DNA from: Escherichia phage APECc02
Reading direction: 5' to 3' (one strand)
Sequence record: NC_041869.1
Length of the DNA stretch: 64,000 nucleotides
Shown: positions 8,820-32,482 of the stretch, in pieces
Layout: every line of letters begins with the position of its first letter
Position numbering within the stretch: position 1 is the stretch's first letter
The notes under the pieces: model-generated
What the model was told of the DNA's origin: nothing
What the model saw: only the letters and a program-made list of their open reading frames with translations
Database searches by the model: none
Program-made: the position numbers and the translations under genes

Positions 8820-10887
8820 ATTTATGGCATCTGCATACAACCGTTTCGGTGAGCCAAACCCGAAAGCAACTAAGTATAAAAGTGGGGGAAGTGTGAAACG
8901 AGACTATCGTGATGAAAAAGAAGTTGAAACTGTAGAGACTGTTTTAGAAAATACTAAAATTGTCCCTGTCCCACAACAAAATATCGGTCTGATGGCTGCA
9001 CAATATTTTGGTGTGCGATCAGCATTGTCCCAAGAAGACGGTGTGACAGTCACTGCAACATATTTCCCATATTACGACCGCTACGGAAATCTGTCCGGTT
9101 TCAAAAAGCGCGACTGGACGATTCCTAAAGAGCAAAGGGGCCATTTCTCCGTTGTTGGCATCGTAAAGGCTAACTCCCAGATGTTTGGTCAAAAGCTGTG
9201 TGCATCTTCCAACAACCGTAAGCAGATTAACGTTTGCGAGGGAGAAGGTGATGTTATTGCAGCATGGCAGGCTGCATATCAGATACAAGTAAAAGGGATT
9301 CTCACCAACGCTAAAGCCCCGGCAAAGGTGAAGCAGTGGGCTAAAGAGGTACAGGACGGGATCGATGCAGTTATCAACGGTGGTGATCTGGCAGGAAAAC
9401 CCTGCCTACCTTTTGTTGGAATTAACTGCGGATGTGCAAACGCAGTAGATACTTTTGCAAACAATGAGAAGTTTATCCGTAGCTATGGAACAGTTGTGCT
9501 GGCAATGGATAACGATGCAGCTAACGAGGTAGAGAAGCAAAAACACGTCATTAAAGGTGTTGAGGCTACGCACAATATCGCAGCATTTTTGATGGCTGAT
9601 AACGTTTACCACGTAGAGTACCCTGGTGAAGTAAACGATCCTGACGGTGTAAAAGATATCCGTGACATGCTGAAGGCTAAAAAGCTGGAAGATATTGTAA
9701 ACATGTTCCGGCATCCTGTTAAGTATGTACCGGATGCTGTATCGGATTTAGAAGACTTCTCTATCGAATCTTTGCGGAAAAAGACTTCCAACGGGGTAGA
9801 TATCAGCGCAGAGTTCCCAAAACTGCAAAAAATGCTAAAAGGCTTGCACAAAGGGACACTCGTAATGCTTACAGGTCCATCAGGAGGCGGTAAAACAACT
9901 GTAGCTAAAAAACTGGAACACTGTATTGCAAGATACCTAATGGACCCGACATGTCCAAAGGCTGATGATTACGAAGAGGATGATCGTCTATGCATGATTC
10001 ATCTTGAGGAGGACCCAGAGGAAGCAATTAACTCCTTGTATGCAAACCAGTTAGGGTTTGATGTTAAAGAGTTTGTTGAAGATCCTAGCCAGTTTTTAAC
10101 TGATCAAGAACACGCAGAGATTCACCAATCATGGGCAAAAGCTGGAAAAATCAAAGTGTTCAAACATTTCGGGTCTATTCCAGTGGACGAGTTGATTACC
10201 AAGCTTAAGCAAATGGTTTGCCTGTACCATTGTCGTTATATTGTGCTGGATCACCTGTCCATGGTAATTTCAGGGCTTAATGTTAAGGATGAGCGAAAAG
10301 AACTGGACATGGCTATGACCCAACTGGCTGCGTTTTGTAAGCAGTTTAACGTGTTTATCTTGGTGATCGCTCACCTCAAACGTACAGAGATTGTGCCCCC
10401 TAAGGACAAGGATGGTAACCCATTACCTTTCTGGTATCCTGTGCGAAAAGAGAATTTGCGAGGATCGGCGGGGCTTGAACAGTTGAGTTGGGTAGTCATA
10501 GGTGTCGAGGCCGAAGAAATGGTGGATCGTTCTCGTGGACGTGTCCGTCTGGTAGGTCTTAAAAACCGTCCAGCAAAAACTCTAGGTATTGCTGACACTT
10601 TGGTTATGGACCCGCACACAGGTAAGTTCCATGATGCCAGTAATTGGTACTGGGACAAAGAAATGCAAATGTTTACAGACGGAGAAGGTGGGGAGGTTGT
10701 TTGGAGACCTCAGGCTATGTTTGAGGATCAGGAGCATGCAGTTGTAGAAACACCTATGGGCAAGGTTGTGGCTGATAAGGTTGTAACTCCTACTGTTAAG
10801 CCTGTTGACACGCAGGAAGACCTCCAGTACGATGATCCATCCTCTGACCCGGTCCCTGGTTTTGAGGATGATGAAACGCCTTTTTAA
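8809..10887 (+). CDS. bifunctional primase-helicase (TOPRIM primase + DnaB-family helicase, T7 gp4-like)
   Basis: acidic TOPRIM-like motifs EGEGD and MDNDAAN in N-terminal half; Walker A LTGPSGGGKTT and helicase C-terminal half; acidic tail ending EDDETPF; RBS AAGGAG; start overlaps MTase stop. Confidence 0.75.
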   Translation: MGSKFMASAYNRFGEPNPKATKYKSGGSVKRDYRDEKEVETVETVLENTKIVPVPQQNIGLMAAQYFGVRSALSQEDGVTVTATYFPYYDRYGNLSGFKKRDWTIPKEQRGHFSVVGIVKANSQMFGQKLCASSNNRKQINVCEGEGDVIAAWQAAYQIQVKGILTNAKAPAKVKQWAKEVQDGIDAVINGGDLAGKPCLPFVGINCGCANAVDTFANNEKFIRSYGTVVLAMDNDAANEVEKQKHVIKGVEATHNIAAFLMADNVYHVEYPGEVNDPDGVKDIRDMLKAKKLEDIVNMFRHPVKYVPDAVSDLEDFSIESLRKKTSNGVDISAEFPKLQKMLKGLHKGTLVMLTGPSGGGKTTVAKKLEHCIARYLMDPTCPKADDYEEDDRLCMIHLEEDPEEAINSLYANQLGFDVKEFVEDPSQFLTDQEHAEIHQSWAKAGKIKVFKHFGSIPVDELITKLKQMVCLYHCRYIVLDHLSMVISGLNVKDERKELDMAMTQLAAFCKQFNVFILVIAHLKRTEIVPPKDKDGNPLPFWYPVRKENLRGSAGLEQLSWVVIGVEAEEMVDRSRGRVRLVGLKNRPAKTLGIADTLVMDPHTGKFHDASNWYWDKEMQMFTDGEGGEVVWRPQAMFEDQEHAVVETPMGKVVADKVVTPTVKPVDTQEDLQYDDPSSDPVPGFEDDETPF

Positions 10888-10945
10888 TGTTTAACAAAGA
10901 GTGGGAGGGGTAGTACAACCGCCTCCCCTTTAAGGAGAACTGTAT

Positions 10946-19856: not shown

Positions 19857-20282
19857 ATGATCTATGAAATGCCAAAACTGATTCGTGACGATGCCCAAAA
19901 CGCTCACACCATTATTATGGGCAAACGCATGGATATTATTTGTCATAAAGATTTCTGGGAAGGAAGTTACTTCACAGAGTATTTTGGTAAACTGGACAAT
20001 GGTCTGCTGATCCAGTTCTACACCGATGCGGAAAACAACATTCCCTGGGAGTTCGAAACTGAAGATGTCCATAAACTTTTCACCTTCCTCGGTATTAAGG
20101 TTAAGGCCAAGTTTGAAGAAGGTGAGTGCGACGATTGTGGATTTTATGAGGTAACAGATTTCTACCTTCCTAGCGGTAAGAACCTTTACTATGAAAGCCA
20201 CTTCGGTAACTCCAATATGCCACAGTGCTGGACTGAGTTTTTTGAAATTGCGGAAGAGGAGCTGGCTTACCGTGATTATTGA
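19857..20282 (+). CDS. hypothetical protein
   Basis: 141-aa ORF with AGGAGA RBS. Confidence 0.5.
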   Translation: MIYEMPKLIRDDAQNAHTIIMGKRMDIICHKDFWEGSYFTEYFGKLDNGLLIQFYTDAENNIPWEFETEDVHKLFTFLGIKVKAKFEEGECDDCGFYEVTDFYLPSGKNLYYESHFGNSNMPQCWTEFFEIAEEELAYRDY

Positions 20283-20730
20283 TACTGTAGAGGGAGATTT
20301 AATCTCCCTTTTTAAGAGCGGTGCTGGTCACCTGATCCACGGTTGTAACTGCTTCCACACAATGGGCAAGGGTATAGCAAAACAGATTGCCCGTGAGTTT
20401 CCTCAAGCACTGTCAGCCGACAAAGAGACTAGATACGGTTGCCTAAGTAAACTGGGTGCGTTATCCCGATGGGAGCACTTATCTCCGATAGGTATTGTCT
20501 ACGGAATCAATCTATATACCCAGTTCTACCCAGGACCTAATGCTGAGTATTTCTCAATCCTGAAAGGCTTTGAGCTAGTCAATGAAGTATTCAGCGGATC
20601 GACTTTACCATTCTACATCCCTAAGATCGGGTGCGGCATAGGCGGTTTGAAGTGGGAACACGTAGAGGACGTTATTAACCTTGCCACTTTCGACATAGAT
20701 ATTGTCGTGGTGGAGTACAAAAAGTGTTGA
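20272..20730 (+). CDS. macro-domain protein (putative ADP-ribose binding/hydrolase)
   Basis: motifs GDLISLF, HLIHGCNCFHTMGKGIAKQIAREF and IPKIGCGIGGL fit the macro-domain signature; probable GTG start at 20272 with GAGGAG 10 nt upstream (track ORF 20191..20730). Confidence 0.6.
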   Translation: MIIDTVEGDLISLFKSGAGHLIHGCNCFHTMGKGIAKQIAREFPQALSADKETRYGCLSKLGALSRWEHLSPIGIVYGINLYTQFYPGPNAEYFSILKGFELVNEVFSGSTLPFYIPKIGCGIGGLKWEHVEDVINLATFDIDIVVVEYKKC

Positions 20731-20981
20731 CGACCATCTTCTGAGGTGATATAGTTTCCACGACAACTAAGAGAGGAGAGCACTGTGGAGACTAAAATCT
20801 TAATTCTTGCTGTGGTAGATACAACCGAAGGAGCTATATTCGAATCTGCAGGAGGGTATTTCTACCTACCATACGGAAAAAGAACTTCCGAGCCAAGTAA
20901 AGATTCAATCCTCAAAGTGTTCCCGTGTGCTTTCTGGCTGGAGATTTTGGTATAAGATTGCAGAGGATTTGGGAGAGAATT

Positions 20982-21176
20982 ATGAGAAACAAGAAAGAAC
21001 TTTACTCCGGTGAGTGGATCAACGATCAACAGGTGGGAGAGGTAACCTGCTTCCGATGTTTTACCAGGTACAATCTTAAAACTGCACCAAAAAGTGTTCC
21101 AAAGACTGACGGTTACTACATAAAAGAACCTCATTGCCCAAAATGTAAATGCCGATTGTACTGGAGCAATCTGTAA
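20982..21176 (+). CDS. small zinc-ribbon protein
   Basis: CFRCF and CPKCKC pairs; ATG after GGGAGAGAA; track ORF 20925..21176 trimmed. Confidence 0.45.
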   Translation: MRNKKELYSGEWINDQQVGEVTCFRCFTRYNLKTAPKSVPKTDGYYIKEPHCPKCKCRLYWSNL

Positions 21177-21180
21177 GAGG

Positions 21181-21209
21181 TTGACATCTGAAAACTGCAG
21201 TGTATAATA
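21181..21209 (+). promoter_or_regulatory. sigma70-like promoter TTGACA-N17-ATAATA
   Basis: -35 TTGACA directly after upstream stop, 17-nt spacer, TATAAT-like -10. Confidence 0.65.
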
Positions 21210-21239
21210 TACGCATAAACTAACAGAGGGTGATGTATT

Positions 21240-21431
21240 ATGGTAATTTTTAACCGGGATGGTATCATAGTTAGACAGCACCCGTTCCTTGAATACTATC
21301 AAATTGAGCAATGGTGCTACGGGGATTGCAGTCACTCCTATGGGCAAAGTTGGGGATATCGTACAGTTTTTGAATCCACAGACCTTGACAAAGTAAAACA
21401 GAAAGTTTTAGAACTTCTTAACAACAAGTGA
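21240..21431 (+). CDS. hypothetical protein
   Basis: 63-aa ORF downstream of promoter, AGAGGG RBS. Confidence 0.45.
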   Translation: MVIFNRDGIIVRQHPFLEYYQIEQWCYGDCSHSYGQSWGYRTVFESTDLDKVKQKVLELLNNK

Positions 21432-21441
21432 GTATCGTGCC

Positions 21442-21774
21442 ATGGTAACATTGGAAAGACGTAAAGCTATTGCCGCCACACTGGCAGACATCTTTTGGGA
21501 TTGTAATTTAAAATCTACCCGAAATTGTGGTGCATCTGTAGATGTATTATTCCCACGGCCTACTATTGTTGCAATGGGCAACCTGCTCGATGTGGTATAT
21601 GGAGCATGGGACAAGGAAGGTGGATTCTATATCTGGCAACCTGACTACGGGACTTGGAAAGAGGTTAGTGGTTCTTCGGACTTCACTCCTGCAGTGGCTA
21701 AAATGGATGGCTGGAAAATCTATGTCGGTAACGACATGGAACTGAAAGGCGAAATTGTTTACTGGTTACCTTAA
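21442..21774 (+). CDS. hypothetical protein
   Basis: 110-aa ORF in co-directional array. Confidence 0.5.
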   Translation: MVTLERRKAIAATLADIFWDCNLKSTRNCGASVDVLFPRPTIVAMGNLLDVVYGAWDKEGGFYIWQPDYGTWKEVSGSSDFTPAVAKMDGWKIYVGNDMELKGEIVYWLP

Positions 21775-21795
21775 GAAAGTCCAGGAGATAAAGTT

Positions 21796-22041
21796 ATGAA
21801 CAAAGGGTGGACATTTGTAGACGGCGTTAAAAACATGCCTCTAGGAAAGTATATTGTAGCCATGGCAGATGAGAATGGCAAGGTTGATTTCGGAGTTTGC
21901 GAGGTTGTTCTTGCAGGATCTGGTGACTATGCTCACAAAACTGGGATAATTAACGGTCATTTCTACTTTGATTACAACCCTGTTGTGGCGTATATGGCTA
22001 TGCCAGAGTTCGAGCTCCCAAAGGAAGGTGCAGATGTTTAA
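21796..22041 (+). CDS. hypothetical protein
   Basis: 81-aa ORF with CAGGAGA RBS. Confidence 0.5.
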   Translation: MNKGWTFVDGVKNMPLGKYIVAMADENGKVDFGVCEVVLAGSGDYAHKTGIINGHFYFDYNPVVAYMAMPEFELPKEGADV

Positions 22042-22231
22042 GCTTAAATCTGCATGGAACATCGCTGTGGGGGACGAGATCCGTATCCCAGGTGGAAAGA
22101 CCATTATGAAAATATCTCGTATCGAGTACGAAGGTGATCGTGTATTTCATATCTTTGCAGAAGATGGTCGAGAAATTTATATACAGGCAGGCTCTCACAT
22201 CTATATTCGTAAGAAAGGGGAGGACAAATGA
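22034..22231 (+). CDS. hypothetical protein
   Basis: ATG overlapping upstream stop with AAGGAAGG RBS; track ORF 21968..22231 trimmed. Confidence 0.45.
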   Translation: MFKLKSAWNIAVGDEIRIPGGKTIMKISRIEYEGDRVFHIFAEDGREIYIQAGSHIYIRKKGEDK

Positions 22232-22557
22232 CAGAGATCATCATTTCAACTGCAGGGTATGTATTCCTGACAATCATTGCGCTGGCTATTCTGGTGGCGG
22301 TGTATGGATTTGTTATCCTTCCTATCCTTGAGACATTTAGTTTGTGTCGGTGTTGGAGAAAAGCTTACGGTCCACAACCATGGAAGGACTGGCCCCACCT
22401 GGTGCGCTTAGCGTTCTCTTATGCTTACGATCACTCCAGTAGTGCATGCATAACCGGATACCACGCCCACAACTGGAGCTGGGAAGGGTTGAGGAAATGG
22501 AATGTTACAAAGACCATACCTCTGCGCATGTACAAACCTAAAAACAAAGACAGCTGA
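22228..22557 (+). CDS. hypothetical membrane protein
   Basis: N-terminal hydrophobic helix YVFLTIIALAILVAVYGFVILPIL; GGGGAGGA RBS. Confidence 0.5.
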   Translation: MTEIIISTAGYVFLTIIALAILVAVYGFVILPILETFSLCRCWRKAYGPQPWKDWPHLVRLAFSYAYDHSSSACITGYHAHNWSWEGLRKWNVTKTIPLRMYKPKNKDS

Positions 22558-22869
22558 TACTTGAAAATTCCTGGCATATCAAGTGTAAGGGGGATTTCTA
22601 AAATGGATTTCCTCCTTTTGATATTTCACCAGGCTGGATATTTTAAAATTCTTAGAAAATCAGAAAATGGATCGAAAACTAAAATGGATTTTTCAGAGTA
22701 GGCGCGACAAGCTGAATAACTCATCCTATCGTTTGCACCATATTCCAGGCCACCATTATAGATTTCCCACACATGCTAACCTCCCTCTACTAGAACTTCC
22801 TCCACTTGCCCTTGACCTTCTATGGTAACAATCTAACCACTATCTTGAAGTTGCGGTGCAGCTTTCCAG

Positions 22870-22980
22870 GTACTCGATCTACTTTTCATTTCAGGGCTTG
22901 GATTTTCTGAAAATTTTTCTCGATAAATTTCTCAGTACTCGATCTGTTTTTCGTTTTCTGAATCGGATTTTCTGGAAATC
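22870..22980. repeat. about 65-bp imperfect tandem duplication in AT-rich ORF-free region
   Basis: GTACTCGATCT at 22870 and 22935; GGATTTTCTG(A/G)AAAT at 22900 and 22965; AAATGGAT repeated at 22601, 22665, 22682, 23035. Confidence 0.6.
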
Positions 22981-23165
22981 GTTCCGGATCTCGACCTGAA
23001 ATTTTTGGGGACGAAATCGATTTTTCGTTTTCAGAAATGGATTTTTAAAATTTCTATATGGGAATATTTTATGGGATACTGTTTTATAGGAAATTGTTAC
23101 GGAGGGTAATTAGCATGCTAACTAAATTTATGAAATGCGAAAAGTTCTCATTTAGAATTTTGAAT

Positions 23166-23352
23166 GATAATCATTCTCGTTTGCAGAATAACGGGCACCC
23201 CCGGTGATTGTCTCCCGGCCCCTACTGCCCCAGCTTGTTATTATAGTAACACACAGGACAAAGAAAGCAAGAAGTTTTTGCATAAATTTTTAGACGATAA
23301 TGATAATCGTTCTCATTTTATGCAGCGCCCATCCCCGGTGGTTGTCTCCCCC
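23166..23352. repeat. two copies of about 55-bp direct repeat
   Basis: GATAATC.TTCTC.TTT..GCAG...CCCCGGTG.TTGTCTCCC at 23166 and 23302. Confidence 0.55.
23278..23307 (+). promoter_or_regulatory. sigma70-like promoter TTGCAT-N17/18-GATAAT
   Basis: good -35/-10 pair reading into the second direct repeat; no ORF with RBS follows for about 250 nt. Confidence 0.4.
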
Positions 23353-23572
23353 GTCACCGGTGCCTGCCGTCCTTTCGATAGGTATATTGTGCCACCTGGC
23401 GTGGCCGCTGTCAACACTTTTCAAAAAATTTTTCTAACCTGATGCGCTAACCGCTGCAACCTGGCGGGGCCAGCCTGGCAGGACCTAACTGACCAGGTAG
23501 GAGAGAATGAAGGCTTATAATCTGGTGGGCCTATGCTATAGGATAGGTAACAATTGAAGAGGAGGTACAAAA

Positions 23573-23695
23573 ATGAAAGGTAATATGATCCCCCTGGAAA
23601 ATGTAGCGATTAATGACGCTGAGGCTATCGCCATGGTTGAAAGGCTATGGCGGGAGCGTTGGAACATAAAGAAGAGTACGAAAAATGGTGGTTAA
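23573..23695 (+). CDS. small protein, 40 aa (below ORF-track cutoff)
   Basis: ATG 8 nt after strong RBS GAAGAGGAGG; MKGNMIPLENVAINDAEAIAMVERLWRERW... Confidence 0.35.
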   Translation: MKGNMIPLENVAINDAEAIAMVERLWRERWNIKKSTKNGG

Positions 23696-23832
23696 CCTGG
23701 CGGGGGCGGCGGCTGGAGAATTCTGCCCAAAAAATAATTTTAACTAATGGTTGACAGCTCGGACAGTTCTTGTTATTCTTATCCTCGCAAGGTGAACAAC
23801 ACCAAACTAATTAACAGAGAGGATAAAAAATC

Positions 23833-24030
23833 ATGAACGCCTACGGAATCAAAGTACGTCGCAGCACTCGCCAGGTGGTCACCGATCAAATGGTTTGCCA
23901 GGTGGACGTAACCATCAACAACGGGCAAGGCCTTTATAAATTTCGTCGCGGTCATAGCTATACCCTGCAACAGCTTAATCGTTGCGCCCTGACAAAAGGT
24001 CAGATCAACCACTGGTTTAATAAAAAATAA
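23833..24030 (+). CDS. hypothetical protein
   Basis: 65-aa ORF with AGAGAGGA RBS. Confidence 0.5.
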   Translation: MNAYGIKVRRSTRQVVTDQMVCQVDVTINNGQGLYKFRRGHSYTLQQLNRCALTKGQINHWFNKK

Positions 24031-24033
24031 GTA

Positions 24034-24062
24034 TTGACATACAGTCTGAAACAAAATATACT
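24034..24062 (+). promoter_or_regulatory. sigma70-like promoter TTGACA-N17-TATACT
   Basis: -35 begins 4 nt after upstream stop; ATG 24095 lies 32 nt past -10. Confidence 0.65.
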
Positions 24063-24094
24063 GAAAGCACAAAAGACGCTAAGAGGATAAAATC

Positions 24095-24493
24095 ATGAAA
24101 ACCACAACCTTTAATTTTAATAATGCTGACTTCTCTTTTTCTGATGTTAAAAGCTGCCGCCGTGATCGCGGATTCTACAAGGCCTATAATCTGGTGGGCC
24201 TGGACGATGACAATAATTTGCACGAAGTAGCTGAGATCCGGTATTATGCCGCCGCCAGCGGTAACACTCATTACTGTGTATTTTGGATTCACGACAACAA
24301 GAACAATAAGTACGGTTATACTGGCGGCAAGGCGAGCGGTCACGGTTATGATAAAGCTAACGCAGCACTTGAGAGCGCATTAAATGCTATGGGGATCACT
24401 GCCGACGGCTGGATCTACGAAGAAGAGTTTTTGTCGGCACTTGCTGACCACCTAGGCTATAAAAAGCACATTGTAACATGCGCCCACGAATAA
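24095..24493 (+). CDS. hypothetical protein
   Basis: 132-aa ORF with AAGAGGA RBS. Confidence 0.5.
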   Translation: MKTTTFNFNNADFSFSDVKSCRRDRGFYKAYNLVGLDDDNNLHEVAEIRYYAAASGNTHYCVFWIHDNKNNKYGYTGGKASGHGYDKANAALESALNAMGITADGWIYEEEFLSALADHLGYKKHIVTCAHE

Positions 24494-24575
24494 AAATCAT
24501 TGACACGCTGCAAAATTTAAGTAAACTAGACACAAAAGGCGGGAATGTTTCCCGCCAGCACAAAGGAAAAAGATC

Positions 24576-24980
24576 ATGAATAAGAACGTACGCCGCATCA
24601 TGAACGAGTTGGCAAACGATGAAAAAATTATTGACATGCATTTGATCAACATTTGCCGCCGTTGTGTAACATATAACAACCGCGCCGCAAAAGCGCGTGA
24701 GATGAACGCAAAAGGCACCTTAAAGCCATTCCAGGTGGTGGTAAAGGCCATTAAAGATGTAACTAATACGGCAAACCAGGTACAGGGGAACACCAACGAG
24801 AGTACCAATATTGATCCGGCTTACATCATGAAACGGATCCGGACCTGCAAGAACAAAGAGCAAGTGTATAATGTCATAGACTGGTTGGATTCTATGGGAG
24901 ATGTGGTTTACAACAGGTTTTCTGCAGCTATCGAGATCCAGCTTGACAGGTTGGACGGTAAAGTACTGAAAACTTACTAA
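24576..24980 (+). CDS. hypothetical protein
   Basis: 134-aa ORF; upstream TTGACA, GGCGGGAA/TTCCCGCC 5' hairpin, AAAGGA RBS. Confidence 0.5.
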   Translation: MNKNVRRIMNELANDEKIIDMHLINICRRCVTYNNRAAKAREMNAKGTLKPFQVVVKAIKDVTNTANQVQGNTNESTNIDPAYIMKRIRTCKNKEQVYNVIDWLDSMGDVVYNRFSAAIEIQLDRLDGKVLKTY

Positions 24981-24982
24981 GT

Positions 24983-25028
24983 TTATTTTTAGATGGCCTT
25001 GACTTCAGGGCCATCAATAAAGTAAACT
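24983..25028. repeat. conserved palindromic intergenic element, copy 1
   Basis: TTATTTTTAGATGGCC-TTGACTTCAG-GGCCATCAATAAAGTAAACT; 7-bp arms GATGGCC/GGCCATC with TTGACT in loop; directly after stop codon. Confidence 0.7.
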
Positions 25029-25061
25029 AATCTCAACTAAGCGAAAAAGGGGGGCTTTAAG

Positions 25062-25181
25062 ATGAGCACTACACGCCAATACACAAAGGTAACTATTATC
25101 GTTTGCGTTGTCGGTTACATCCTGGCGCAAATGTTAATGAGTAGCGCTAACAGTTTTGCAAAATTTTTCTTAAATTTTTAA
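25062..25181 (+). CDS. small hydrophobic peptide, 39 aa (below ORF-track cutoff)
   Basis: ATG after AAAGGGGGG; MSTTRQYTKVTIIVCVVGYILAQMLMSSANSFAKFFLNF, one predicted TM helix. Confidence 0.35.
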   Translation: MSTTRQYTKVTIIVCVVGYILAQMLMSSANSFAKFFLNF

Positions 25182-25209
25182 TTGACAAACTAACTTAGAT
25201 CGATATACT
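25182..25209 (+). promoter_or_regulatory. sigma70-like promoter TTGACA-N16-TATACT
   Basis: followed by GGGAA/TTCCC hairpin, CA-rich leader, AAGGAGA SD and ATG 25261. Confidence 0.6.
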
Positions 25210-25260
25210 TAAACACGTAAACGGGAAAACTTCCCAGAGCACACAAAAGGAGAAAACACC

Positions 25261-25602
25261 ATGACTACTATGACCGCCGCAGAAAAAGCTATGCAGATCG
25301 CCGCGCTGAAAAAACAGATCGCAGACCTTGAGAACAAGATCGATAACTTTGAAATCGACGAGGACAAGTACGACGAAAACTATGATGAATGGTTAGACGA
25401 GATCTACGGCGAAATTATGATCGGAAACATTTCTTTTCTTCCGTCGCGTATCCTCAAGGAGCTAGATCCTATCGCTTACCGCTGCGGATTTAGCGACTAC
25501 ATCGACAGCCTGGATATTGAGGACGATGAAGAATACCAGGAACTACAGACAGAGTTAGAAGAAGCAAAAGAAGAGCTTGCGGAGCTGGAAGAAAACGAGT
25601 AA
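25261..25602 (+). CDS. hypothetical highly acidic protein
   Basis: 113 aa, Asp/Glu-rich second half (DIEDDEEYQELQTELEEAKEELAELEENE). Confidence 0.55.
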   Translation: MTTMTAAEKAMQIAALKKQIADLENKIDNFEIDEDKYDENYDEWLDEIYGEIMIGNISFLPSRILKELDPIAYRCGFSDYIDSLDIEDDEEYQELQTELEEAKEELAELEENE

Positions 25603-25604
25603 GA

Positions 25605-25650
25605 TTATTTTTAGATGGCCTTGACTTCAGGGCCATCAATAAAGTAAACT
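25605..25650. repeat. conserved palindromic intergenic element, copy 2
   Basis: identical to copy 1 over about 46 bp; directly after stop codon. Confidence 0.7.
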
Positions 25651-25691
25651 TTATACCGTTAACACTGAACTAATACAGAGGAGTTAAAACC

Positions 25692-25937
25692 ATGGCAGCA
25701 CTAATCACCAAATATTATGCCCCTACCAACACCAAAAGCGCCCGTATCATGGTAAAAGGCTTCGGACGTAAAAAGGTTTACACCTGGGATTATTCCCTAG
25801 ACATGGAAGACAACTACACCAACGCAATGACCGATTTTATTAATGAATTAAATAAGCAGATCTTGACAAGTTATAAAGTGACAGATATTGCTTATATAGG
25901 TGAAGGCGGGATCTGTTTTGTAGGCATTGTGAAATAG
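25692..25937 (+). CDS. hypothetical protein
   Basis: 81-aa ORF with AGAGGAG RBS. Confidence 0.5.
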   Translation: MAALITKYYAPTNTKSARIMVKGFGRKKVYTWDYSLDMEDNYTNAMTDFINELNKQILTSYKVTDIAYIGEGGICFVGIVK

Positions 25938-25985
25938 TTATTTTTTCGGTGGTCCTGGCTGCAGGGCCATCTATAAAGATAATTT
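25938..25985. repeat. diverged variant of the palindromic intergenic element
   Basis: TTATTTTTTCGGTGGTCCTGGCTGCAGGGCCATCTATAAAGATAATTTA; same position after stop codon, same flanks. Confidence 0.45.
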
Positions 25986-26011
25986 ATTAACACCATGAAA
26001 GGAGAAAGTAC

Positions 26012-26359
26012 ATGATCAGCGGGGCTAGTTTTATTATTGGCGCTATTGCTACGACTTTAATTGTAAACAAGATCCAATCTAAAAACGAAAAAGATAGCAA
26101 CGCGCTCACAGAATACCCATTTTGGGTATTCAACGACAACGAAGACTACATAATCAAGTACAAAGATGAGAGAGGCGACCAGGTAACACCGCGACCGATC
26201 CCAGCTTACAAGATGCAAGAAACACTCTACCGCCTAAAGGCCGGAGGCGCAAAGATCGTAGACTTTTGGGGATATGATTGCAAGGATCAGGAGGTCATAA
26301 AACGTCGTATCCGGGCGATTCAGGCAAATATTGAAATTAGTAAAGGGGGAAATTTATGA
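26012..26359 (+). CDS. hypothetical protein with N-terminal TM helix
   Basis: 115-aa ORF; AAAGGAGAAA RBS. Confidence 0.5.
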   Translation: MISGASFIIGAIATTLIVNKIQSKNEKDSNALTEYPFWVFNDNEDYIIKYKDERGDQVTPRPIPAYKMQETLYRLKAGGAKIVDFWGYDCKDQEVIKRRIRAIQANIEISKGGNL

Positions 26360-26553
26360 AAATTAATTTCGAAAAAATTGTAAAGCGCCGCCGCGATTCC
26401 GAAGAGCTGCCGGAACGCCGCCAGCGTAACAATAAACTGAATAAACCGAAAAGGTTCGGGAAGATCTGGAGGAATCACTATGATCGCAAATTACCGGGCC
26501 TGCTTTTGGAACGTGAACGACAGGCGGAACGATACCGCCACAAAGGCAAATAA
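26356..26553 (+). CDS. hypothetical small basic protein
   Basis: 65 aa, Arg/Lys-rich; ATGA overlap. Confidence 0.5.
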   Translation: MKINFEKIVKRRRDSEELPERRQRNNKLNKPKRFGKIWRNHYDRKLPGLLLERERQAERYRHKGK

Positions 26554-26561
26554 CAACCAAC

Positions 26562-26590
26562 GCCCCGCCATTGTGCGGGGCTTTTTATTT
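26562..26590 (+). terminator. rho-independent terminator
   Basis: hairpin GCCCCGC-CATTGT-GCGGGGC followed by TTTTTATTT. Confidence 0.65.
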
Positions 26591-26734
26591 CTATCCCGCC
26601 GATAGCGCCCCTGGTTGGCCCTACAAGCGCCATAAAGGCCCCTACCTATGCAATCCCCTTTCTTAACCTGAAAACAGCGTCTAGGGCCGTTTTATGGCGT
26701 TAAAAATATTATTGACAGTGATTCTATTTAAAGC

Positions 26735-26763
26735 TTGACACCTTGGGATAGTCCGGATATACT
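26735..26763 (+). promoter_or_regulatory. sigma70-like promoter TTGACA-N17-TATACT
   Basis: second of two tandem TTGACA boxes (first at about 26713). Confidence 0.6.
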
Positions 26764-26798
26764 AACCACATCAAAGCAAGAAGGAAGGAGTAAACGCC

Positions 26799-27059
26799 AT
26801 GCGTAAATTAAAAAATTTTGATAAAGTCGATGTTGTCCTGAATAATTTTTACTACTGCAATAATAAAGCCGTTTGGTGGCGTGATAGTTCCACCGATAAA
26901 GTTAAAGCGCGCTTTCTCCAAGGGCACTGGCAAGGCCGTCCAGTGATTAAAATCCTTGGGCAATTGGTAGCGTTTAAAAATTGCCGCCGTGTTGATGACG
27001 TTGAAGAGATTCTAAACATTTTACGCCACAATAATTTAAAAAATAGTGTTGACAAGTAA
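26799..27059 (+). CDS. hypothetical protein
   Basis: 86-aa ORF with GGAAGGAG RBS. Confidence 0.5.
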   Translation: MRKLKNFDKVDVVLNNFYYCNNKAVWWRDSSTDKVKARFLQGHWQGRPVIKILGQLVAFKNCRRVDDVEEILNILRHNNLKNSVDK

Positions 27060-27076
27060 GTCTCAATAAGTATACT
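27049..27076 (+). promoter_or_regulatory. sigma70-like promoter TTGACA-N16-TATACT
   Basis: -35 overlaps end of upstream ORF; followed by GGCGGGAA/TTCCCGCC hairpin and CA-rich leader. Confidence 0.6.
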
Positions 27077-27133
27077 TAAACACACAGGCGGGAAGTTTTC
27101 CCGCCACTAACAAAGAAAATAGGAGAAAATATC

Positions 27134-27757
27134 ATGACCACCGTTAACATTACTACAGGTTACAATTTATCTTTCGACGTGCTGACCGACGAACAAAAAG
27201 AAAAAGCTGTTGAAATGGTCCGCGAAAGAGAAGAACACAGCGGGGATAACTTTTTTGCAGAAAGTGTAATTGAGTACTATAAAGAATATGTTTTTCCAGA
27301 GTATGGCCTTGAAGATACCGAAATACATTGGTCCGGCTTTTGGTGTCAAGGCGACGGCGCATCAATTAGCGCTGAAAATGTAAACTTAGAAAAATTCTTG
27401 CGTAAAGTAAAGGCCCTGACCAAGTTCCGATCAATTCGTCACTTGTTCGGCACAATGCACGATGGCGAGTTATCAGCCAGTGTTGAACGCGACAAGTACA
27501 GCCATTATAGCCATGAAAACACTGTAAGCGGATACATTGATACCACCTGGCTAGATCTGACCGCCAAACAAGAAAACAAAGTGGAAGACCTGGAAGAGCT
27601 GATCACCGAGACGGTACGGGAGCTATCCCGCAAGGTTTACGTAGACCTGGAGGAGGCCTATCTTGAACAGTTTACTACCGAAAACCTGATCGGCCTTATT
27701 GAGGCCAATGATTGGCGGTTTGATGTGGATGAATATGGCGAGATGACTTTTTCATAA
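27134..27757 (+). CDS. hypothetical acidic protein
   Basis: 207-aa ORF; conserved-looking WSGFWCQGDGA segment; no confident family assignment. Confidence 0.55.
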   Translation: MTTVNITTGYNLSFDVLTDEQKEKAVEMVREREEHSGDNFFAESVIEYYKEYVFPEYGLEDTEIHWSGFWCQGDGASISAENVNLEKFLRKVKALTKFRSIRHLFGTMHDGELSASVERDKYSHYSHENTVSGYIDTTWLDLTAKQENKVEDLEELITETVRELSRKVYVDLEEAYLEQFTTENLIGLIEANDWRFDVDEYGEMTFS

Positions 27758-27765
27758 ATAAAGTG

Positions 27766-27793
27766 TTGCAATAACCTAAAAACCTGCTATATT
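27766..27793 (+). promoter_or_regulatory. sigma70-like promoter TTGCAA-N16-TATATT
   Basis: followed by GGGGCAA/TTGCCCC hairpin, CACAAAACAAAGAGGAA leader. Confidence 0.55.
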
Positions 27794-27846
27794 AAAACTC
27801 AAGGGGGCAAGACGTTTGCCCCACACAAAACAAAGAGGAAAACATT

Positions 27847-28227
27847 ATGAAAAACACTACCAAGGCTATTGACACCGTTATGTTTAACCTGGTTACCTTT
27901 CGCGAGGATATGAAAGATCTTCCACGTGAAACAGTGTGCGATCACATTGAAAACTATCGCAAACTAATCAAAGAGTTGCCCCTAAAACGTGACCAGTACG
28001 CGGCTAATGCTATGCTTAATGCCATGATCAAAAAGATGATTCAGTGTGATTTAACTCTGGCCTATGATTATGCAGGCGGTCGTTTTGCAGTATACAATCA
28101 GCCCGTGCCCGGTATGGGCACCACCGAAGAATTGCACGCGCTTAATCTAAAACAAGACGTATGGGATAACATGCCCCGCGTGGTGGTGTGGGCAGAAAGC
28201 GGAAAGATTTACGGCGATAATTTTTAA
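27847..28227 (+). CDS. hypothetical protein
   Basis: 126-aa ORF. Confidence 0.5.
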   Translation: MKNTTKAIDTVMFNLVTFREDMKDLPRETVCDHIENYRKLIKELPLKRDQYAANAMLNAMIKKMIQCDLTLAYDYAGGRFAVYNQPVPGMGTTEELHALNLKQDVWDNMPRVVVWAESGKIYGDNF

Positions 28228-28291
28228 TCAGGTAACAGGCGGCATATTTGCCGCCTTATTGTTAAACAGAACTGCAAAAGAGGTACATAGA

Positions 28292-28663
28292 ATGGAATTT
28301 ATTATTTTGGCTGTAGTAGTTGCCTTGTTCAACGCCTGGATCGCTGGCAAGATGGGTAGATCCGCCTTTTTATGGTTTATTATATCTATTTTCCTGGGGG
28401 TGGTTGCAACTATTGTACTTGTTATCCTTGCAATTGTTGACAAGGGGAATAATAGAAAGGGTAAAGTATTTTCAGACCTGTACGACGCTCAAACGTTTGT
28501 CAACGCCTATTATAGTGATCTTCCAGTCTCCCTACGCTGCAGCCTGGCACAACAGGTTTTTGATGAGGCTAAAACCAGAGATCAAGCCCATGAGATATGT
28601 TTAACTGAGGCGGATCGCCTATTTGAGAGGAATAGAAAATATGTGGGCCAACCGTTTAAATAA
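28292..28663 (+). CDS. hypothetical membrane protein
   Basis: two hydrophobic helices; ATG after AAAGAGG (track ORF 28259..28663 trimmed). Confidence 0.5.
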   Translation: MEFIILAVVVALFNAWIAGKMGRSAFLWFIISIFLGVVATIVLVILAIVDKGNNRKGKVFSDLYDAQTFVNAYYSDLPVSLRCSLAQQVFDEAKTRDQAHEICLTEADRLFERNRKYVGQPFK

Positions 28664-28886
28664 TGCCACGTTAATTAATCCCTTTAGTGAAGATTTGAAG
28701 CCAGCCGCCTGGCGTGACGGATTCAATAACGAACGCTTTATTTTCAAGCCTGATCTTGAGGAATTTTATAACAATGGATCGAACAACAGCGGAGATAATT
28801 TTTCTTGGGATGTGCGTGGTGATGGTACTCCTGGGGGCCATTGTAAACCACGTCACTACTACCAGGAGGAAAGGGGGAGACGATGA
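28641..28886 (+). CDS. hypothetical protein
   Basis: ATG after GAGAGGAA overlapping upstream gene end; track ORF 28623..28886. Confidence 0.4.
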   Translation: MWANRLNNATLINPFSEDLKPAAWRDGFNNERFIFKPDLEEFYNNGSNNSGDNFSWDVRGDGTPGGHCKPRHYYQEERGRR

Positions 28887-29002
28887 CAACCAAGGATAAG
28901 CCCCGTACCGATAAGGCGCGCCGGGTTATGGTATGGCTTGAGATCATCGCCCTTGAAATATTGCTAGGCGTAGGGATGTACTTTATCGCTGTAAGTAACT
29001 AA
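28883..29002 (+). CDS. small membrane peptide, 39 aa (below ORF-track cutoff)
   Basis: ATGA overlap with upstream stop; hydrophobic core VMVWLEIIALEILLGVGMYFIAV; followed by terminator. Confidence 0.3.
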   Translation: MTTKDKPRTDKARRVMVWLEIIALEILLGVGMYFIAVSN

Positions 29003-29006
29003 GAAC

Positions 29007-29034
29007 GGCCCCCGATCATGGGGGCCTATCTTTT
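29007..29034 (+). terminator. rho-independent terminator
   Basis: hairpin GGCCCCC-GATCAT-GGGGGCC followed by TATCTTTT then a 12-A run. Confidence 0.65.
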
Positions 29035-29060
29035 AAAAAAAAAAAATTTCTTCCGGGGTG

Positions 29061-29089
29061 TTGCAATCCGGTCCGGAATGTGGATAATA
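29061..29089 (+). promoter_or_regulatory. sigma70-like promoter TTGCAA-N17-ATAATA
   Basis: spacer contains TGTGGATAA (DnaA-box-like 9-mer); followed by GGGGA/TCCCC hairpin and leader. Confidence 0.6.
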
Positions 29090-29144
29090 ACAATCAACGG
29101 GGAGCTAATCCCCACCACCACAAAAACCAGAAAGGAGAAACAAA

Positions 29145-29345
29145 ATGAGCAACAATATCCGCGTTATTAACTTCAAAAAAGAAGAAAAAATTGCCGTGCT
29201 GATTGACGGTCAAGAAATCTTCAAGGGCGACTATGAAGATCATCAAACGGCGATTAGTATCACTCGCGTGATTGGTTACCATAATTTTTACCCCCAAGGC
29301 GCTGAGGCAGCGGTTAAACGAATCAAAGAGATTGTAGGCCTGTAA
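29145..29345 (+). CDS. hypothetical protein
   Basis: 66-aa ORF with AAAGGAGAAA RBS. Confidence 0.5.
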   Translation: MSNNIRVINFKKEEKIAVLIDGQEIFKGDYEDHQTAISITRVIGYHNFYPQGAEAAVKRIKEIVGL

Positions 29346-29348
29346 AAT

Positions 29349-29393
29349 TTATTTTTAGATGGCCTTGACTCCAGGGCCATCAATAAAGTAAAT
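29349..29393. repeat. conserved palindromic intergenic element, copy 3
   Basis: as copies 1 and 2 with one loop substitution (TTGACTCCAG) and AAAT end. Confidence 0.7.
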
Positions 29394-29439
29394 TTAAACC
29401 CTGTTAAAAATACCACGCAGTTAACAAGGAGTGATAGAC

Positions 29440-29739
29440 ATGTTTATCCAGGCTAATAATCTTTATTTCTTTGATGGTCAGATCGTAGACGGTGTGGAAG
29501 TGGAGATCACCGGGTGCCCTGGCGGTCAGGCTATGACTTTTCGGAATAATGCCTTTGATGATTCTCATATCGTTATGAGAATGGAAGTTACGAAGCTGGA
29601 CGACAAGAAAACACTTATTGACTATTCTGTGAAAGATCATCCAGACTACCGCATGATCCATGGCGATTTGTGCATTGTTGACCGTGACAAGGTGGGCGGC
29701 ATTGTGATCGCTATTGTGAACGATGTTTTCTCAAACTAA
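29440..29739 (+). CDS. hypothetical protein
   Basis: ATG 8 nt after AAGGAG; track ORF 29431..29739. Confidence 0.5.
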   Translation: MFIQANNLYFFDGQIVDGVEVEITGCPGGQAMTFRNNAFDDSHIVMRMEVTKLDDKKTLIDYSVKDHPDYRMIHGDLCIVDRDKVGGIVIAIVNDVFSN

Positions 29740-29756
29740 TTTCAGCAGGTGATTTT

Positions 29757-30107
29757 ATGAAAGTCAAACTATATTACCTTAATGAGCTTAACCCCCTTGC
29801 CCAGGTCCGCGCCCTGGCTAATACCTTGATTTGTGAGAAATCTGCATATTGTGTTGAGCTTAACGCCATGCGTGAACGTCTCAAAGGGGGTTACTTTGAC
29901 ATCCATGCTGCAATCAACGGCCTGAATATGGAATTTATACGCTTACGTAACAGCCGCCGGAATCTGGCAAGAATGGAACAAGATCCGGCCCACCTTCGTA
30001 AGCTGGTTATTGAAAATCATCTGATGTTTAATGCCGAGGGTGATTATTACCATTTTCACCGCAAACGCTGGTACCGTGGCGGCAATACAGGCAAGAATGC
30101 AAAATAA
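29757..30107 (+). CDS. hypothetical protein
   Basis: 116-aa ORF. Confidence 0.5.
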   Translation: MKVKLYYLNELNPLAQVRALANTLICEKSAYCVELNAMRERLKGGYFDIHAAINGLNMEFIRLRNSRRNLARMEQDPAHLRKLVIENHLMFNAEGDYYHFHRKRWYRGGNTGKNAK

Positions 30108-30142
30108 GGCCCCAGGCAGGGCCTGCAGCGATATAATCACAT

Positions 30143-30176
30143 AAAGGCTATGCGGTTGCATGGCCTTTATTATTTT
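30143..30176 (+). terminator. rho-independent terminator
   Basis: imperfect hairpin AAAGGC(T)ATGC-GGTT-GCATGGCCTTT followed by TTTATTATTTT. Confidence 0.5.
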
Positions 30177-30223
30177 AGCGTTACAGCGGCCCCAAGGCGC
30201 TTAAAAAATTTTTAAAGAAGTAC

Positions 30224-30252
30224 TTGCATCAAGTCCTACAATATGGATAATA
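30224..30252 (+). promoter_or_regulatory. sigma70-like promoter TTGCAT-N17-ATAATA
   Basis: followed by GGGGGC/GCCCCC hairpin and leader before ATG 30309. Confidence 0.55.
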
Positions 30253-30308
30253 GGACGTGTCAGGGGGGCGGCCCCCAATCATTAACCGGATAGATAGGAG
30301 TTAAAATC

Positions 30309-30593
30309 ATGGCTATTGTCACCGTTGGCGATGTAGTGGAAATGGAAGCAAAATACTTAAAAGCGGGTATGCATATCCTACGGAATGATCAAGAATTGTT
30401 ATTAACGATGGTAGACTATAATCCCGGCCAGGATTATCCAAGCATCGACTACTTTTTTGAGTATGTTGATGAAGAATTGAAAGAGGATGAGGCTTATCGG
30501 GGTGAATTCTGCAATTTCTTTTGCCCTGATGAGGTTGTAAAAGTTATCTATCAACCTGGAGTACCTTTCCCGCTGCACGCTATCAATAAATAA
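30309..30593 (+). CDS. hypothetical protein
   Basis: 94-aa ORF with ATAGGAG RBS. Confidence 0.5.
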   Translation: MAIVTVGDVVEMEAKYLKAGMHILRNDQELLLTMVDYNPGQDYPSIDYFFEYVDEELKEDEAYRGEFCNFFCPDEVVKVIYQPGVPFPLHAINK

Positions 30594-30647
30594 ACCTGGT
30601 GGGGCCGAAAAGGCCCCAATTATGAAAATAAAGAGAGGTAAATCATC

Positions 30648-30881
30648 ATGATGGAACAAATTAAACGCGCTGAGGCTATTAATGGCAATGTGATCTATTT
30701 TGTCAGCAAAAACGAAAAAGGCGTACCATATGCGGCGGTAATAGTACAACCTGACGGCGATTATTGGTTTACTGTATACGGATCTTATTCTTTCGGGCGT
30801 CCGGTTCATGATAGAATTTTGAAAGTAGCAAATCCGACCGGGAAAAATATCACAGCAGAAAAATTTTTTGAAAATAGTTGA
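30648..30881 (+). CDS. hypothetical protein
   Basis: 77-aa ORF with AGAGAGG RBS. Confidence 0.5.
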   Translation: MMEQIKRAEAINGNVIYFVSKNEKGVPYAAVIVQPDGDYWFTVYGSYSFGRPVHDRILKVANPTGKNITAEKFFENS

Positions 30882-30905
30882 CATGACCATATAAGACTGT
30901 AATAT
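30878..30905 (+). promoter_or_regulatory. sigma70-like promoter TTGACA-N16-TAATAT
   Basis: -35 overlaps upstream stop codon; followed by GGGGC/GCCCC hairpin and CACAAAGAGGA leader. Confidence 0.6.
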
Positions 30906-30957
30906 ATAAATCAAAGAGGGGCAACAAGCCCCACCAACCACAAAGAGGATAAAAATC

Positions 30958-31137
30958 ATGGCTATTATTGCAAAGACTGAGATCGTAGGCTTAGATTCTA
31001 TTCTCCTCGCATATGAGGAAGCTATAGAAATGTATGTGGTTTCCTATGGTGAGTATATTCGTGAATATAAATCTATTGATCTGGCTTTTGAATGTTATAT
31101 TCGCCAGGTAAATAAAGCATATGATGATTATCGTTAA
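30958..31137 (+). CDS. small protein, 59 aa (below ORF-track cutoff)
   Basis: full promoter-hairpin-leader-SD architecture upstream; MAIIAKTEIVGLDSILLAYEEAIEMYVVSYGEYIREYKSIDLAFECYIRQVNKAYDDYR. Confidence 0.45.
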   Translation: MAIIAKTEIVGLDSILLAYEEAIEMYVVSYGEYIREYKSIDLAFECYIRQVNKAYDDYR

Positions 31138-31143
31138 AATAGT

Positions 31144-31171
31144 TTGACAACAATTACAAATCGGGTAGAAT
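31144..31171 (+). promoter_or_regulatory. sigma70-like promoter TTGACA-N16-TAGAAT
   Basis: 6 nt after upstream stop. Confidence 0.6.
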
Positions 31172-31223
31172 GTATTTCGTAGGGCGGGGCAATAAGGCAA
31201 CGCCCATTAATGAGGGTAGAATC

Positions 31224-31328
31224 ATGTTAGAGAAAATTTTCACGGTTGTAGTAGTTGGCCTGGCATTATCGGTTGGATGGGTTGCAACTATGGCTAACAT
31301 GATCCTATCTTCCCACGGTATCGGTTAA
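31224..31328 (+). CDS. small membrane peptide, 34 aa (below ORF-track cutoff)
   Basis: ATG after GAGGGTAGAA; MLEKIFTVVVVGLALSVGWVATMANMILSSHGIG. Confidence 0.3.
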   Translation: MLEKIFTVVVVGLALSVGWVATMANMILSSHGIG

Positions 31329-31338
31329 GGTGAATCAA

Positions 31339-31554
31339 ATGATCACGAATAAAACAGGTAAAACGGAATTCTTGCGCGGCTTGCAGGTCGGCAAGCCTGA
31401 GATCTGGCATTGCACTAAAACACCACGTGACGAAATGAAAGACTTCACCGCCACGCTGCAACGGGTAAAGATATCCATCACGCAGAAAAAGGCCTTGATA
31501 GTGGTGGAAGGTGAGATCCCTCAAACCGTTGTTATAGTTGAGCGTACAGCATAG
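31339..31554 (+). CDS. hypothetical protein
   Basis: ATG after AAGGTGA; track ORF starts at GTG 31330. Confidence 0.45.
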   Translation: MITNKTGKTEFLRGLQVGKPEIWHCTKTPRDEMKDFTATLQRVKISITQKKALIVVEGEIPQTVVIVERTA

Positions 31555-32428: not shown

Positions 32429-32482
32429 TTATCTTGAAGGGGCAAAAGTGCCCACACAACAACCAGAAGAGAGGAAAACATT

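Follow-up and report, generated by a model that had tools for sequence, protein, structure and literature searches.

A repeated two-tier hairpin between early genes of Escherichia phage APECc02, a candidate RNase III processing site and apparent crossover point for cassette loss

Escherichia phage APECc02 (sequence record NC_041869.1) carries a short element that recurs four times directly behind stop codons within the 64,000-nucleotide (nt) stretch of DNA analysed here as a whole, hereafter the window. The region concerned, window positions 24000-30000, shows 94-96% identity to more than 100 genomes of Vequintavirus (rV5-like) coliphages and belongs to a + strand block of small early genes in which consensus sigma-70 promoters and canonical terminators are numerous. 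The 46-nt core of the element is present with 0 mismatches at 24983-25028 and 25605-25650 (copies 1 and 2) and with 2 mismatches at 29349-29394 (copy 3), against a chance expectation of none in 100 shuffles, and a diverged copy (copy 4) stands at 25938-25984; all four are on the + strand. An initial annotation of this DNA had described three near-identical copies and one diverged copy, starting at 24983, 25605, 29349 and 25938, and this description is borne out. The annotation had also placed each copy 1-3 nt after a stop codon and 35-45 nt before the next start. The position behind stop codons holds, but the offset ranges from 0 to 3 nt (2, 2, 0 and 3 nt for copies 1, 2, 4 and 3) and the next ATG is 27-46 nt away (33, 41, 27 and 46 nt, in the same order). 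The copies, with the hairpins that contain them and the flanking open reading frames (ORFs), are as follows; bit scores are those of a covariance model of phage T7 sites described below, and cuts are those predicted for ribonuclease III (RNase III).

24980-25028, + strand: copy 1 hairpin, between ORF 24576-24980 and ORF 25062-25181; lower stem 24980-24989 with 25019-25028, internal loop 24990-24991 / 25016-25018 (AAU), upper stem 24992-25001 with 25006-25015, loop ACUU at 25002-25005; -25 kcal/mol, z = -7.1; 26.4 bits; predicted cut between 25018 and 25019.
25602-25650, + strand: copy 2 hairpin, between ORF 25261-25602 and ORF 25692-25937, with 46 nt identical to copy 1; upper stem 25614-25623 with 25628-25637, AAU at 25638-25640; -21.1 kcal/mol, z = -5.3; 25.7 bits; predicted cut between 25640 and 25641.
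25936-25984, + strand: copy 4 hairpin, the diverged variant; lower stem 25936-25945 with 25975-25984, internal loop UC / UAU, upper stem 25948-25957 with 25962-25971, loop GCUG, no -35-like hexamer; -22.4 kcal/mol, z = -4.2 on the + strand; 22.3 bits; predicted cut between 25974 and 25975.
29345-29395, + strand: copy 3 hairpin, between ORF 29145-29345 and the ORF starting at 29441; upper stem 29358-29367 with 29372-29381, loop ACUC, AAU at 29382-29384; -23.6 kcal/mol, z = -5.5; 27.0 bits, the best score of the window; predicted cut between 29384 and 29385.

The element is confined to few places and to one viral genus. Both a profile hidden Markov model of the four copies and a covariance model of 36 distinct copies find four copies only in the window, all within 4.4 kb, and the other 73 kb of the genome of a colinear phage, pangalan, contain no copy according to the covariance model. 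By blastn, the element occupies about three places per genome across 119 Vequintavirus records and was found neither outside the genus Vequintavirus nor in 5,426 complete Escherichia coli genomes. The early region of the distant subfamily member SSBI34 contains neither the element nor a hairpin of T7 type, and a search of IMG/VR anchored on the protein of the 113-amino-acid (aa) ORF upstream of copy 2 returned seven distant loci without the element and one Vequintavirus locus. Rfam gave no match at gathering score in the window, and an E-value scan of 24500-29800 gave only weak matches at chance level. As a separate observation, 17 records labelled 'Campylobacter phage' (MG0656xx, UNVERIFIED and unannotated) are 94-100% identical to E. 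coli Vequintavirus across the region; judging by this similarity, they are likely coliphage contaminants or mislabelled entries.

Each copy forms a 49-51-nt two-tier hairpin on the + strand. The lower stem, 10 bp and AU-rich, starts at the last base of the stop codon; it is followed by an asymmetric internal loop, to which the 5' strand contributes 2 nt and the 3' strand 3 nt (AAU or UAU), and then by a GC-rich upper stem of 10 bp, one U.G pair included, which is capped by a tetraloop. Folding energies on the + strand range from -21 to -25 kcal/mol (z -4.2 to -7.1), whereas the minus strand folds much more weakly and, for copy 4, has no fold (z = -0.5). The 7-bp stem with a 10-nt loop initially proposed thus under-reads the structure, in that it omits the lower stem as well as the U.G pair that extends the upper stem to 10 bp.

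Variation among relatives follows this fold closely. With copies gathered from 15 related loci, 36 distinct versions of the element, drawn from 16 Vequintavirus sequences, could be placed in a gap-free alignment, in which 98.8% of cells pair, compared with 35-57% when the partners are slid by 1-3 columns. Compensatory changes occur in four lower-stem pairs (G-C/A-U, U-A/C-G, U-A/A-U and A-U/U-A), four upper-stem pairs vary through G.U only, and copy 4 differs from copies 1-3 exclusively by wobble or compensatory changes. G.U occupies 95 of the 720 cells (13% of the paired cells), including one lower-stem U.G that is invariant across the aligned copies, and each such pair is an A-C mismatch on the other strand. 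Changes that preserve pairing, combined with G.U on the + strand only, indicate that the object under selection is a single-stranded fold of the sense strand, and the simplest reading is that the folded molecule is mRNA.

These data bear directly on the idea that the element acts as DNA, either as an operator for a dimeric regulator, as the initial annotation had considered, or as a palindromic target of a site-specific recombinase or nuclease. The copies do form an imperfect dyad and are nearly identical, recombination between them does happen (see below), and a protein of this kind was speculated on by the authors who described the PeSL elements of other phages (PMC2839356). Yet the changes tolerated as G.U would be A-C mismatches of the dyad on duplex DNA, in all 95 of 720 cells and in the invariant lower-stem pair, and the minus strand of copy 4 has no fold, so that dyad symmetry fails at the DNA level. 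For the crossover, homology alone suffices, and the variant copy 4 is never a deletion end point in the loci examined. The operator is disfavoured by the strand-specific wobbles and the poorer or missing folds of the minus strand, and we consider any such DNA-level site very improbable.

The architecture of the sense-strand fold is that of the early RNase III sites of phage T7. Five T7 sites, when folded, combine an AU-rich lower stem, a small asymmetric internal loop with UAU or AAU on its 3' side, a GC-rich upper stem of 9-10 bp and a loop of 4-5 nt. A covariance model built only from T7 R0.3, R0.5, R1, R1.1 and R1.3 was run on both strands of the whole window with filters off, and its top four matches are the four elements, each at full length and on the + strand (27.0, 26.4, 25.7 and 22.3 bits; rough E-values 0.0015-0.019), followed by a fifth match at 17.9 bits. 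Control scores do not exceed 17.2 bits outside the training sites in 269 kb of other phage DNA, 13.6 bits in the other 73 kb of pangalan and 11 bits in the distant subfamily member and Pseudomonas phage loci, and overall the background of about 400 kb of controls never rises above 17.9 bits. When aligned by the model, AAU|AAA of copies 1-3 and UAU|AAA of copy 4 stand opposite the T7 cut UAU|GAU.

Distances and individual base pairs can be compared with T7 R1.1 on the basis of one study of this minimal substrate (PMC1540722). There, double cleavage of R1.1[WC] is reported to yield a stem-loop of 28 nt, from which the 3' cut of R1.1 can be located 13 nt past the tetraloop; in the element, 13 nt (10 bp plus 3 nt) likewise separate the loop from the end of AAU or UAU. 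The same study gives an 11-bp helix between cut and tetraloop as the minimum for good reactivity, and the corresponding helix of the element has 10 bp and one non-canonical pair. Mapped approximately onto R1.1 numbering from that text, proximal-box position 2 is A-U in copies 1-3, which is favourable, or G.U in copy 4; proximal-box position 4 is A.A or C.U, non-canonical as in R1.1 and likewise favourable, so that the G-C catalytic antideterminant does not occur; and distal-box position 2 is U.G in copies 1-3, again favourable.

All four copies are intercistronic, in operons that start from a strong sigma-70 promoter and close with a hairpin that is either a canonical terminator or resembles one. 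On balance, the analogy with T7 suggests that the elements probably serve as host RNase III processing sites in early operon transcripts, and cleavage with its consequences is the most likely reading of the data; among the options raised initially, the processing site is the one best supported, the T7-only model having singled out the element by its T7-like architecture. Host RNA polymerase transcribes the early operons, and each sense transcript folds into a quasi-continuous helix of about 21 bp. Host RNase III would then cut once, on the 3' side of the internal loop, thereby splitting the polycistronic transcript; the cut would lie 13 nt beyond the tetraloop and directly behind the AAU of copies 1-3 or the UAU of copy 4. 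The upstream mRNA would retain the GC hairpin as a shield against 3' exonucleases, and the downstream mRNA would gain a new 5' end 27-46 nt ahead of its start codon.

Several points weigh against this proposal. The T7 site coordinates, which we take to be those of Dunn and Studier (1983), were checked only via the folds and the 28-nt product. A sequence-only model of the same T7 alignment finds none of the four copies at E-values up to 10, which indicates that the match lies in architecture and not in sequence and makes the comparison a statement of 'works like', not of common descent; the resemblance is best described as analogy, and homology is not supported. The internal loop has 2/3 nt, compared with 4/5 nt in the T7 consensus. 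On the approximate R1.1 numbering, the pairs at three other box positions fall short of the optimum, namely U-A at proximal position 1, G-C at proximal position 3 and C-G at distal position 1. Our literature search found no work on cleavage, transcript ends, transcriptomes or RNase III in Vequintavirus. Finally, the loop bases AC, which complete a TTGAC motif, are conserved in copies 1-3 and loop positions 3-4 are variable, a hint of constraint on a -35 box that would fit a promoter role.

A structured RNA could also work without RNase III, as a passive stabiliser of 3' ends resembling the repetitive extragenic palindromes (REPs) of E. coli, or as a binding or cleavage site for another factor, such as RNase E acting beside the hairpin or a phage-encoded RNA-binding protein. 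A conserved sense-strand hairpin right after stop codons is what such a function would call for, the box positions, as mapped approximately onto R1.1, are only partly favourable for RNase III, and the high identity among copies could reflect sequence-specific recognition by a protein. A stabiliser, however, needs the GC stem alone, leaving the covarying 10-bp lower stem and the T7-like internal loop unexplained; loop bases 3-4 vary freely, gene conversion accounts for the identity of the copies, and the element has no similarity to any host repeat. An RNase III-independent role is possible but, in our view, rather improbable.

Transcription signals around the copies help to weigh the remaining alternatives, and those that matter here are listed below.

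24500-24527, + strand: early sigma-70 promoter, TTGACA-16-TAAACT, starting the transcript that enters copy 1 (P194 in Table S4 of the rV5 paper).
25182-25209, + strand: early sigma-70 promoter, TTGACA-16-TATACT, of the operon with copies 2 and 4 (P192 in the rV5 record).
26562-26590, + strand: canonical intrinsic terminator, GCCCCGCCATTGTGCGGGGC then TTTTTATTTC, ending the operon with copies 2 and 4.
24999-25028, + strand: sigma-70-like hexamers in copy 1, TTGACT-N18-TAAACT; the same at 25621-25650.
29365-29394, + strand: sigma-70-like hexamers in copy 3, the -10 reading TAAATT.
24538-24556, 25223-25235, 27087-27105, 30918-30932, 31177-31200 and 32437-32450: hairpins in 5' untranslated regions (5' UTRs).

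Two copies, 4 and 3, carry 45-bp 'terminator' features in the record of phage Murica, and the element does contain a stable GC-rich hairpin. The stem, however, is followed by AAUAAAGUAAAC (AAUAAAG) in place of a U-tract and has its T-run on the 5' side; without a U-tract after the hairpin, intrinsic (rho-independent) termination is not expected. A terminator scan recovers canonical terminators in the vicinity (26562 and 30141) but none of the elements, which are also missing from the terminator list of the rV5 paper, and termination at the elements would leave the genes past copies 2 and 4 with no strong promoter. The initial annotation was right to hold that the element is not a canonical intrinsic terminator. 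That role joins the operator among the unlikely ones, and we regard it as hardly credible.

The operon in which copy 3 separates two cistrons closes with a different structure, a 13-bp hairpin at 30141-30170 followed by UAUUUU. T7 sites R0.5 and R1.1 have exactly the same 3' arm, UGGCCUUUAU, as this hairpin, which ranks fifth among the matches of the T7-site model (17.9 bits) and second among those of the sequence-only model. It may act as a terminator, as an RNase III site or in both capacities.

A further reading takes the element as a composite of the kind described in T4-like phages as the promoter-early stem-loop (PeSL), in which the stem-loop attenuates or terminates transcription and an embedded sigma-70-like promoter restarts it for the small ORF downstream; this would be compatible with RNase III cleavage. 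The published PeSL layout consists of a stop codon in an AT-rich stretch, a G-T-paired stem-loop overlapping the -35 box, a -10 box, a Shine-Dalgarno (SD) sequence and the start of a small ORF (PMC2839356), and the layout of the element matches this description. The hexamers TTGACT and TAAACT noted initially are indeed present, but their spacer is 18 nt, not 17. Copies 1-3 read TTGAC[T/A/G]-N18-TAAACT or TAAATT, a match of 9/12 in a consensus scan (-35 5/6, -10 4/6), with TTGAC conserved including the loop A and C; copies of some relatives read TTGACA, and a predicted rV5 promoter likewise has TAAACT as its -10. The elements bound a cassette loss, and in a related member of the subfamily many early promoters have their -35 and -10 boxes separated by a stem-loop.

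By contrast, copy 4 has lost the -35 box and retains the whole fold. Among the genuine early promoters of the window the pattern is TTGACA-N16/17-TAtaCT throughout, and most of the strong ones have a small GC-rich hairpin in the 5' UTR within about 10-20 nt downstream, such as GGCGGGAAnnTTTCCCGCC; compared with every one of them the embedded promoter is a poorer match, with a long 18-nt spacer, a -10 of 4/6 and no 5'-UTR hairpin. The missing U-tract again speaks against attenuation by intrinsic termination, the covarying lower stem has no promoter role, and there are only 4 copies per genome, compared with about 50 in RB49. A promoter/attenuator role of the PeSL kind is possible, a minority reading that we would not dismiss, and, judged by the hexamers, a weak restart promoter is possible as a secondary role of an RNase III site.

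Other promoter records of the group are mentioned for completeness. The 33 promoters and 20 terminators given in the rV5 genome paper do not include the element, which is also unannotated in the rV5 and HdK5 records. The 5'-UTR GC hairpins are probably stabilisers of 5' ends. Early intergenic regions of SSBI34, a Salmonella phage of the Vequintavirinae, show the succession stop codon, TTGACA, GC stem-loop and ATAAT, for example at locus positions 6363-6428, 8625-8689 and 10883-10940. The Certrevirus promoter paper gives a promoter consensus and leaves stem-loops unmentioned (PMC7344957). In our literature search, no paper tied PeSLs to rV5-like phages.

The copies are also end points of gene loss, a role that the initial annotation did not contain.

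25029-25650, + strand: 622-bp cassette bounded by copies 1 and 2 and absent from some relatives, comprising a 39-aa ORF (25062-25181), the strong promoter at 25182-25209 and the 113-aa ORF (25261-25602).

This cassette is missing in 4 of the 15 related loci (ime, ECP32, phiWec189 and one IMG/VR contig), where the alignment with the window breaks off at 25028 and picks up again at 25591/25602, leaving a single chimeric element that is flanked on the left as copy 1 is and on the right as copy 2 is. As judged from these junctions, the 622-bp loss is the result of an exact copy-to-copy crossover. The cassette-less phages fall into three different left-flank haplotypes, suggesting more than one deletion event. 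Because the copies are near-identical direct repeats, they act as homology patches. Within genomes, loops of the three similar copies agree in 13 of 30 pairs, compared with 6.8 expected (P ~0.009), and this excess points to gene conversion, that is, to concerted evolution, which accounts for how little the copies differ.

Other changes in the region have a different character. A swapped cassette downstream of copy 3 was considered and rejected, relatives aligning through the site at 92-94% identity with only a variable patch in the 5' UTR. In rV5_ev146, which is without copy 1, the deletion (relative to window 24563-25073) is not bounded by repeats, and the sequence past window position 26503 is unrelated to window 20000-31500, so that copy 3 is absent. 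Homologues of the 113-aa ORF with 33-55% identity occur in phages of Vibrio, Aeromonas, Pseudomonas (PAK_P3-like), Proteus and Providencia, and this ORF appears, from their distribution, to be a widely travelling small early gene.

The proposed roles can be combined in a single bold reading, in which the 50-nt element would be a self-homogenising cassette boundary that functions in RNA as an RNase III site, in DNA as a weak restart promoter and also as a preferred crossover point for excision of cassettes (possibly as mini-circles) and their re-insertion. We hold this triple role to be quite improbable; were it true, modular shuffling of the PeSL type would extend from T4-like phages to an unrelated myovirus lineage with a different hairpin.

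Phages of the rV5 type are widely used as candidates for biocontrol or therapy of E. coli O157, and their early expression has hardly been studied: genome papers report only sigma-70 promoters and terminators, with the elements unannotated or labelled terminators. If the elements are true RNase III sites, T7-style processing of early transcripts made by the host polymerase operates in a large myovirus, infection depends in part on host rnc, and annotation pipelines should drop the terminator label. The repeat-to-repeat loss of the cassette is a concrete case of regulatory repeats driving variation in gene content outside T4-like phages, and a practical warning, in that engineered inserts between such repeats can be lost.

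A hairpin with the same upper stem exists elsewhere. About 20 GC-rich viral contigs of IMG/VR and temperate phages of Pseudomonas syringae (psageK9, Medea1, phiPSA1 and others) contain a two-tier hairpin whose 10-bp upper stem is, in most of them, identical to that of the rV5 element (GATGGCCTTG-GNRA-CAGGGCCATC), with a different lower stem (GATTTCC...GGGAAAyC); examples are at L048 3498-3548 and L049 ~3501-3552, two of the loci compared. Each genome has one copy of this conserved hairpin, which follows a stop codon, precedes SD and ATG by 10-25 nt and opens an early operon downstream of cI; in psageK9 it shows a compensatory change from G-C to C-G. These hairpins were not adopted as members of the family, given that they have no match to the T7 model, GNRA loops, another lower stem, one occurrence per genome and another context. 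The shared upper stem, GAUGGCCUUG...CAGGGCCAUC, could be recognised by a common factor or be a coincidence.

Three known systems offer points of comparison. REPs and other intercistronic stabiliser hairpins are extragenic palindromes in E. coli operons that can shield upstream mRNA from 3' exonucleases. The element shares with them the position of a palindrome just past a stop codon inside an operon, but it is phage-specific, the E. coli genomes searched having no similar sequence, and REPs have no counterpart of its second, AU-rich stem.

The likeness to the PeSLs of RB49 and phi1 (PMC2839356, PMC4122927) comprises the AT-rich stretch that holds the upstream stop codon, the G-T-paired stem-loop over sigma-70-like boxes, the SD and small ORF start downstream, and the gain or loss of ORF cassettes between relatives by exchange between two motifs. 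One class of PeSLs has its stem-loop downstream of the -10 box, which is the arrangement of the early promoters and 5'-UTR hairpins of the window. PeSLs differ, however, in their consensus-strength promoters, their number (about 50 per genome in RB49), their concentration in hyperplastic regions of the genome and the diversity of their stem-loops, whereas Vequintavirus, which is not T4-like, has 4 copies of one two-tier hairpin with a weak or absent promoter.

Compared with the T7 sites, the Vequintavirus copies are near-identical and recombining, their lower stem is longer (10 bp), their cleavage is a prediction only, and their phage is a 137-kb myovirus without an RNA polymerase of its own. 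What the two share is a hairpin that spans roughly two helical turns and is interrupted by a small asymmetric internal loop, GC-rich above it and AU-rich below, set between cistrons of early operons that are read by the host polymerase. In T7, moreover, the minor E. coli promoters C (3113) and B (1514) are annotated within or beside R1 (3138) and R0.5 (1468), and they are a precedent for weak host-type promoters that overlap processing hairpins.

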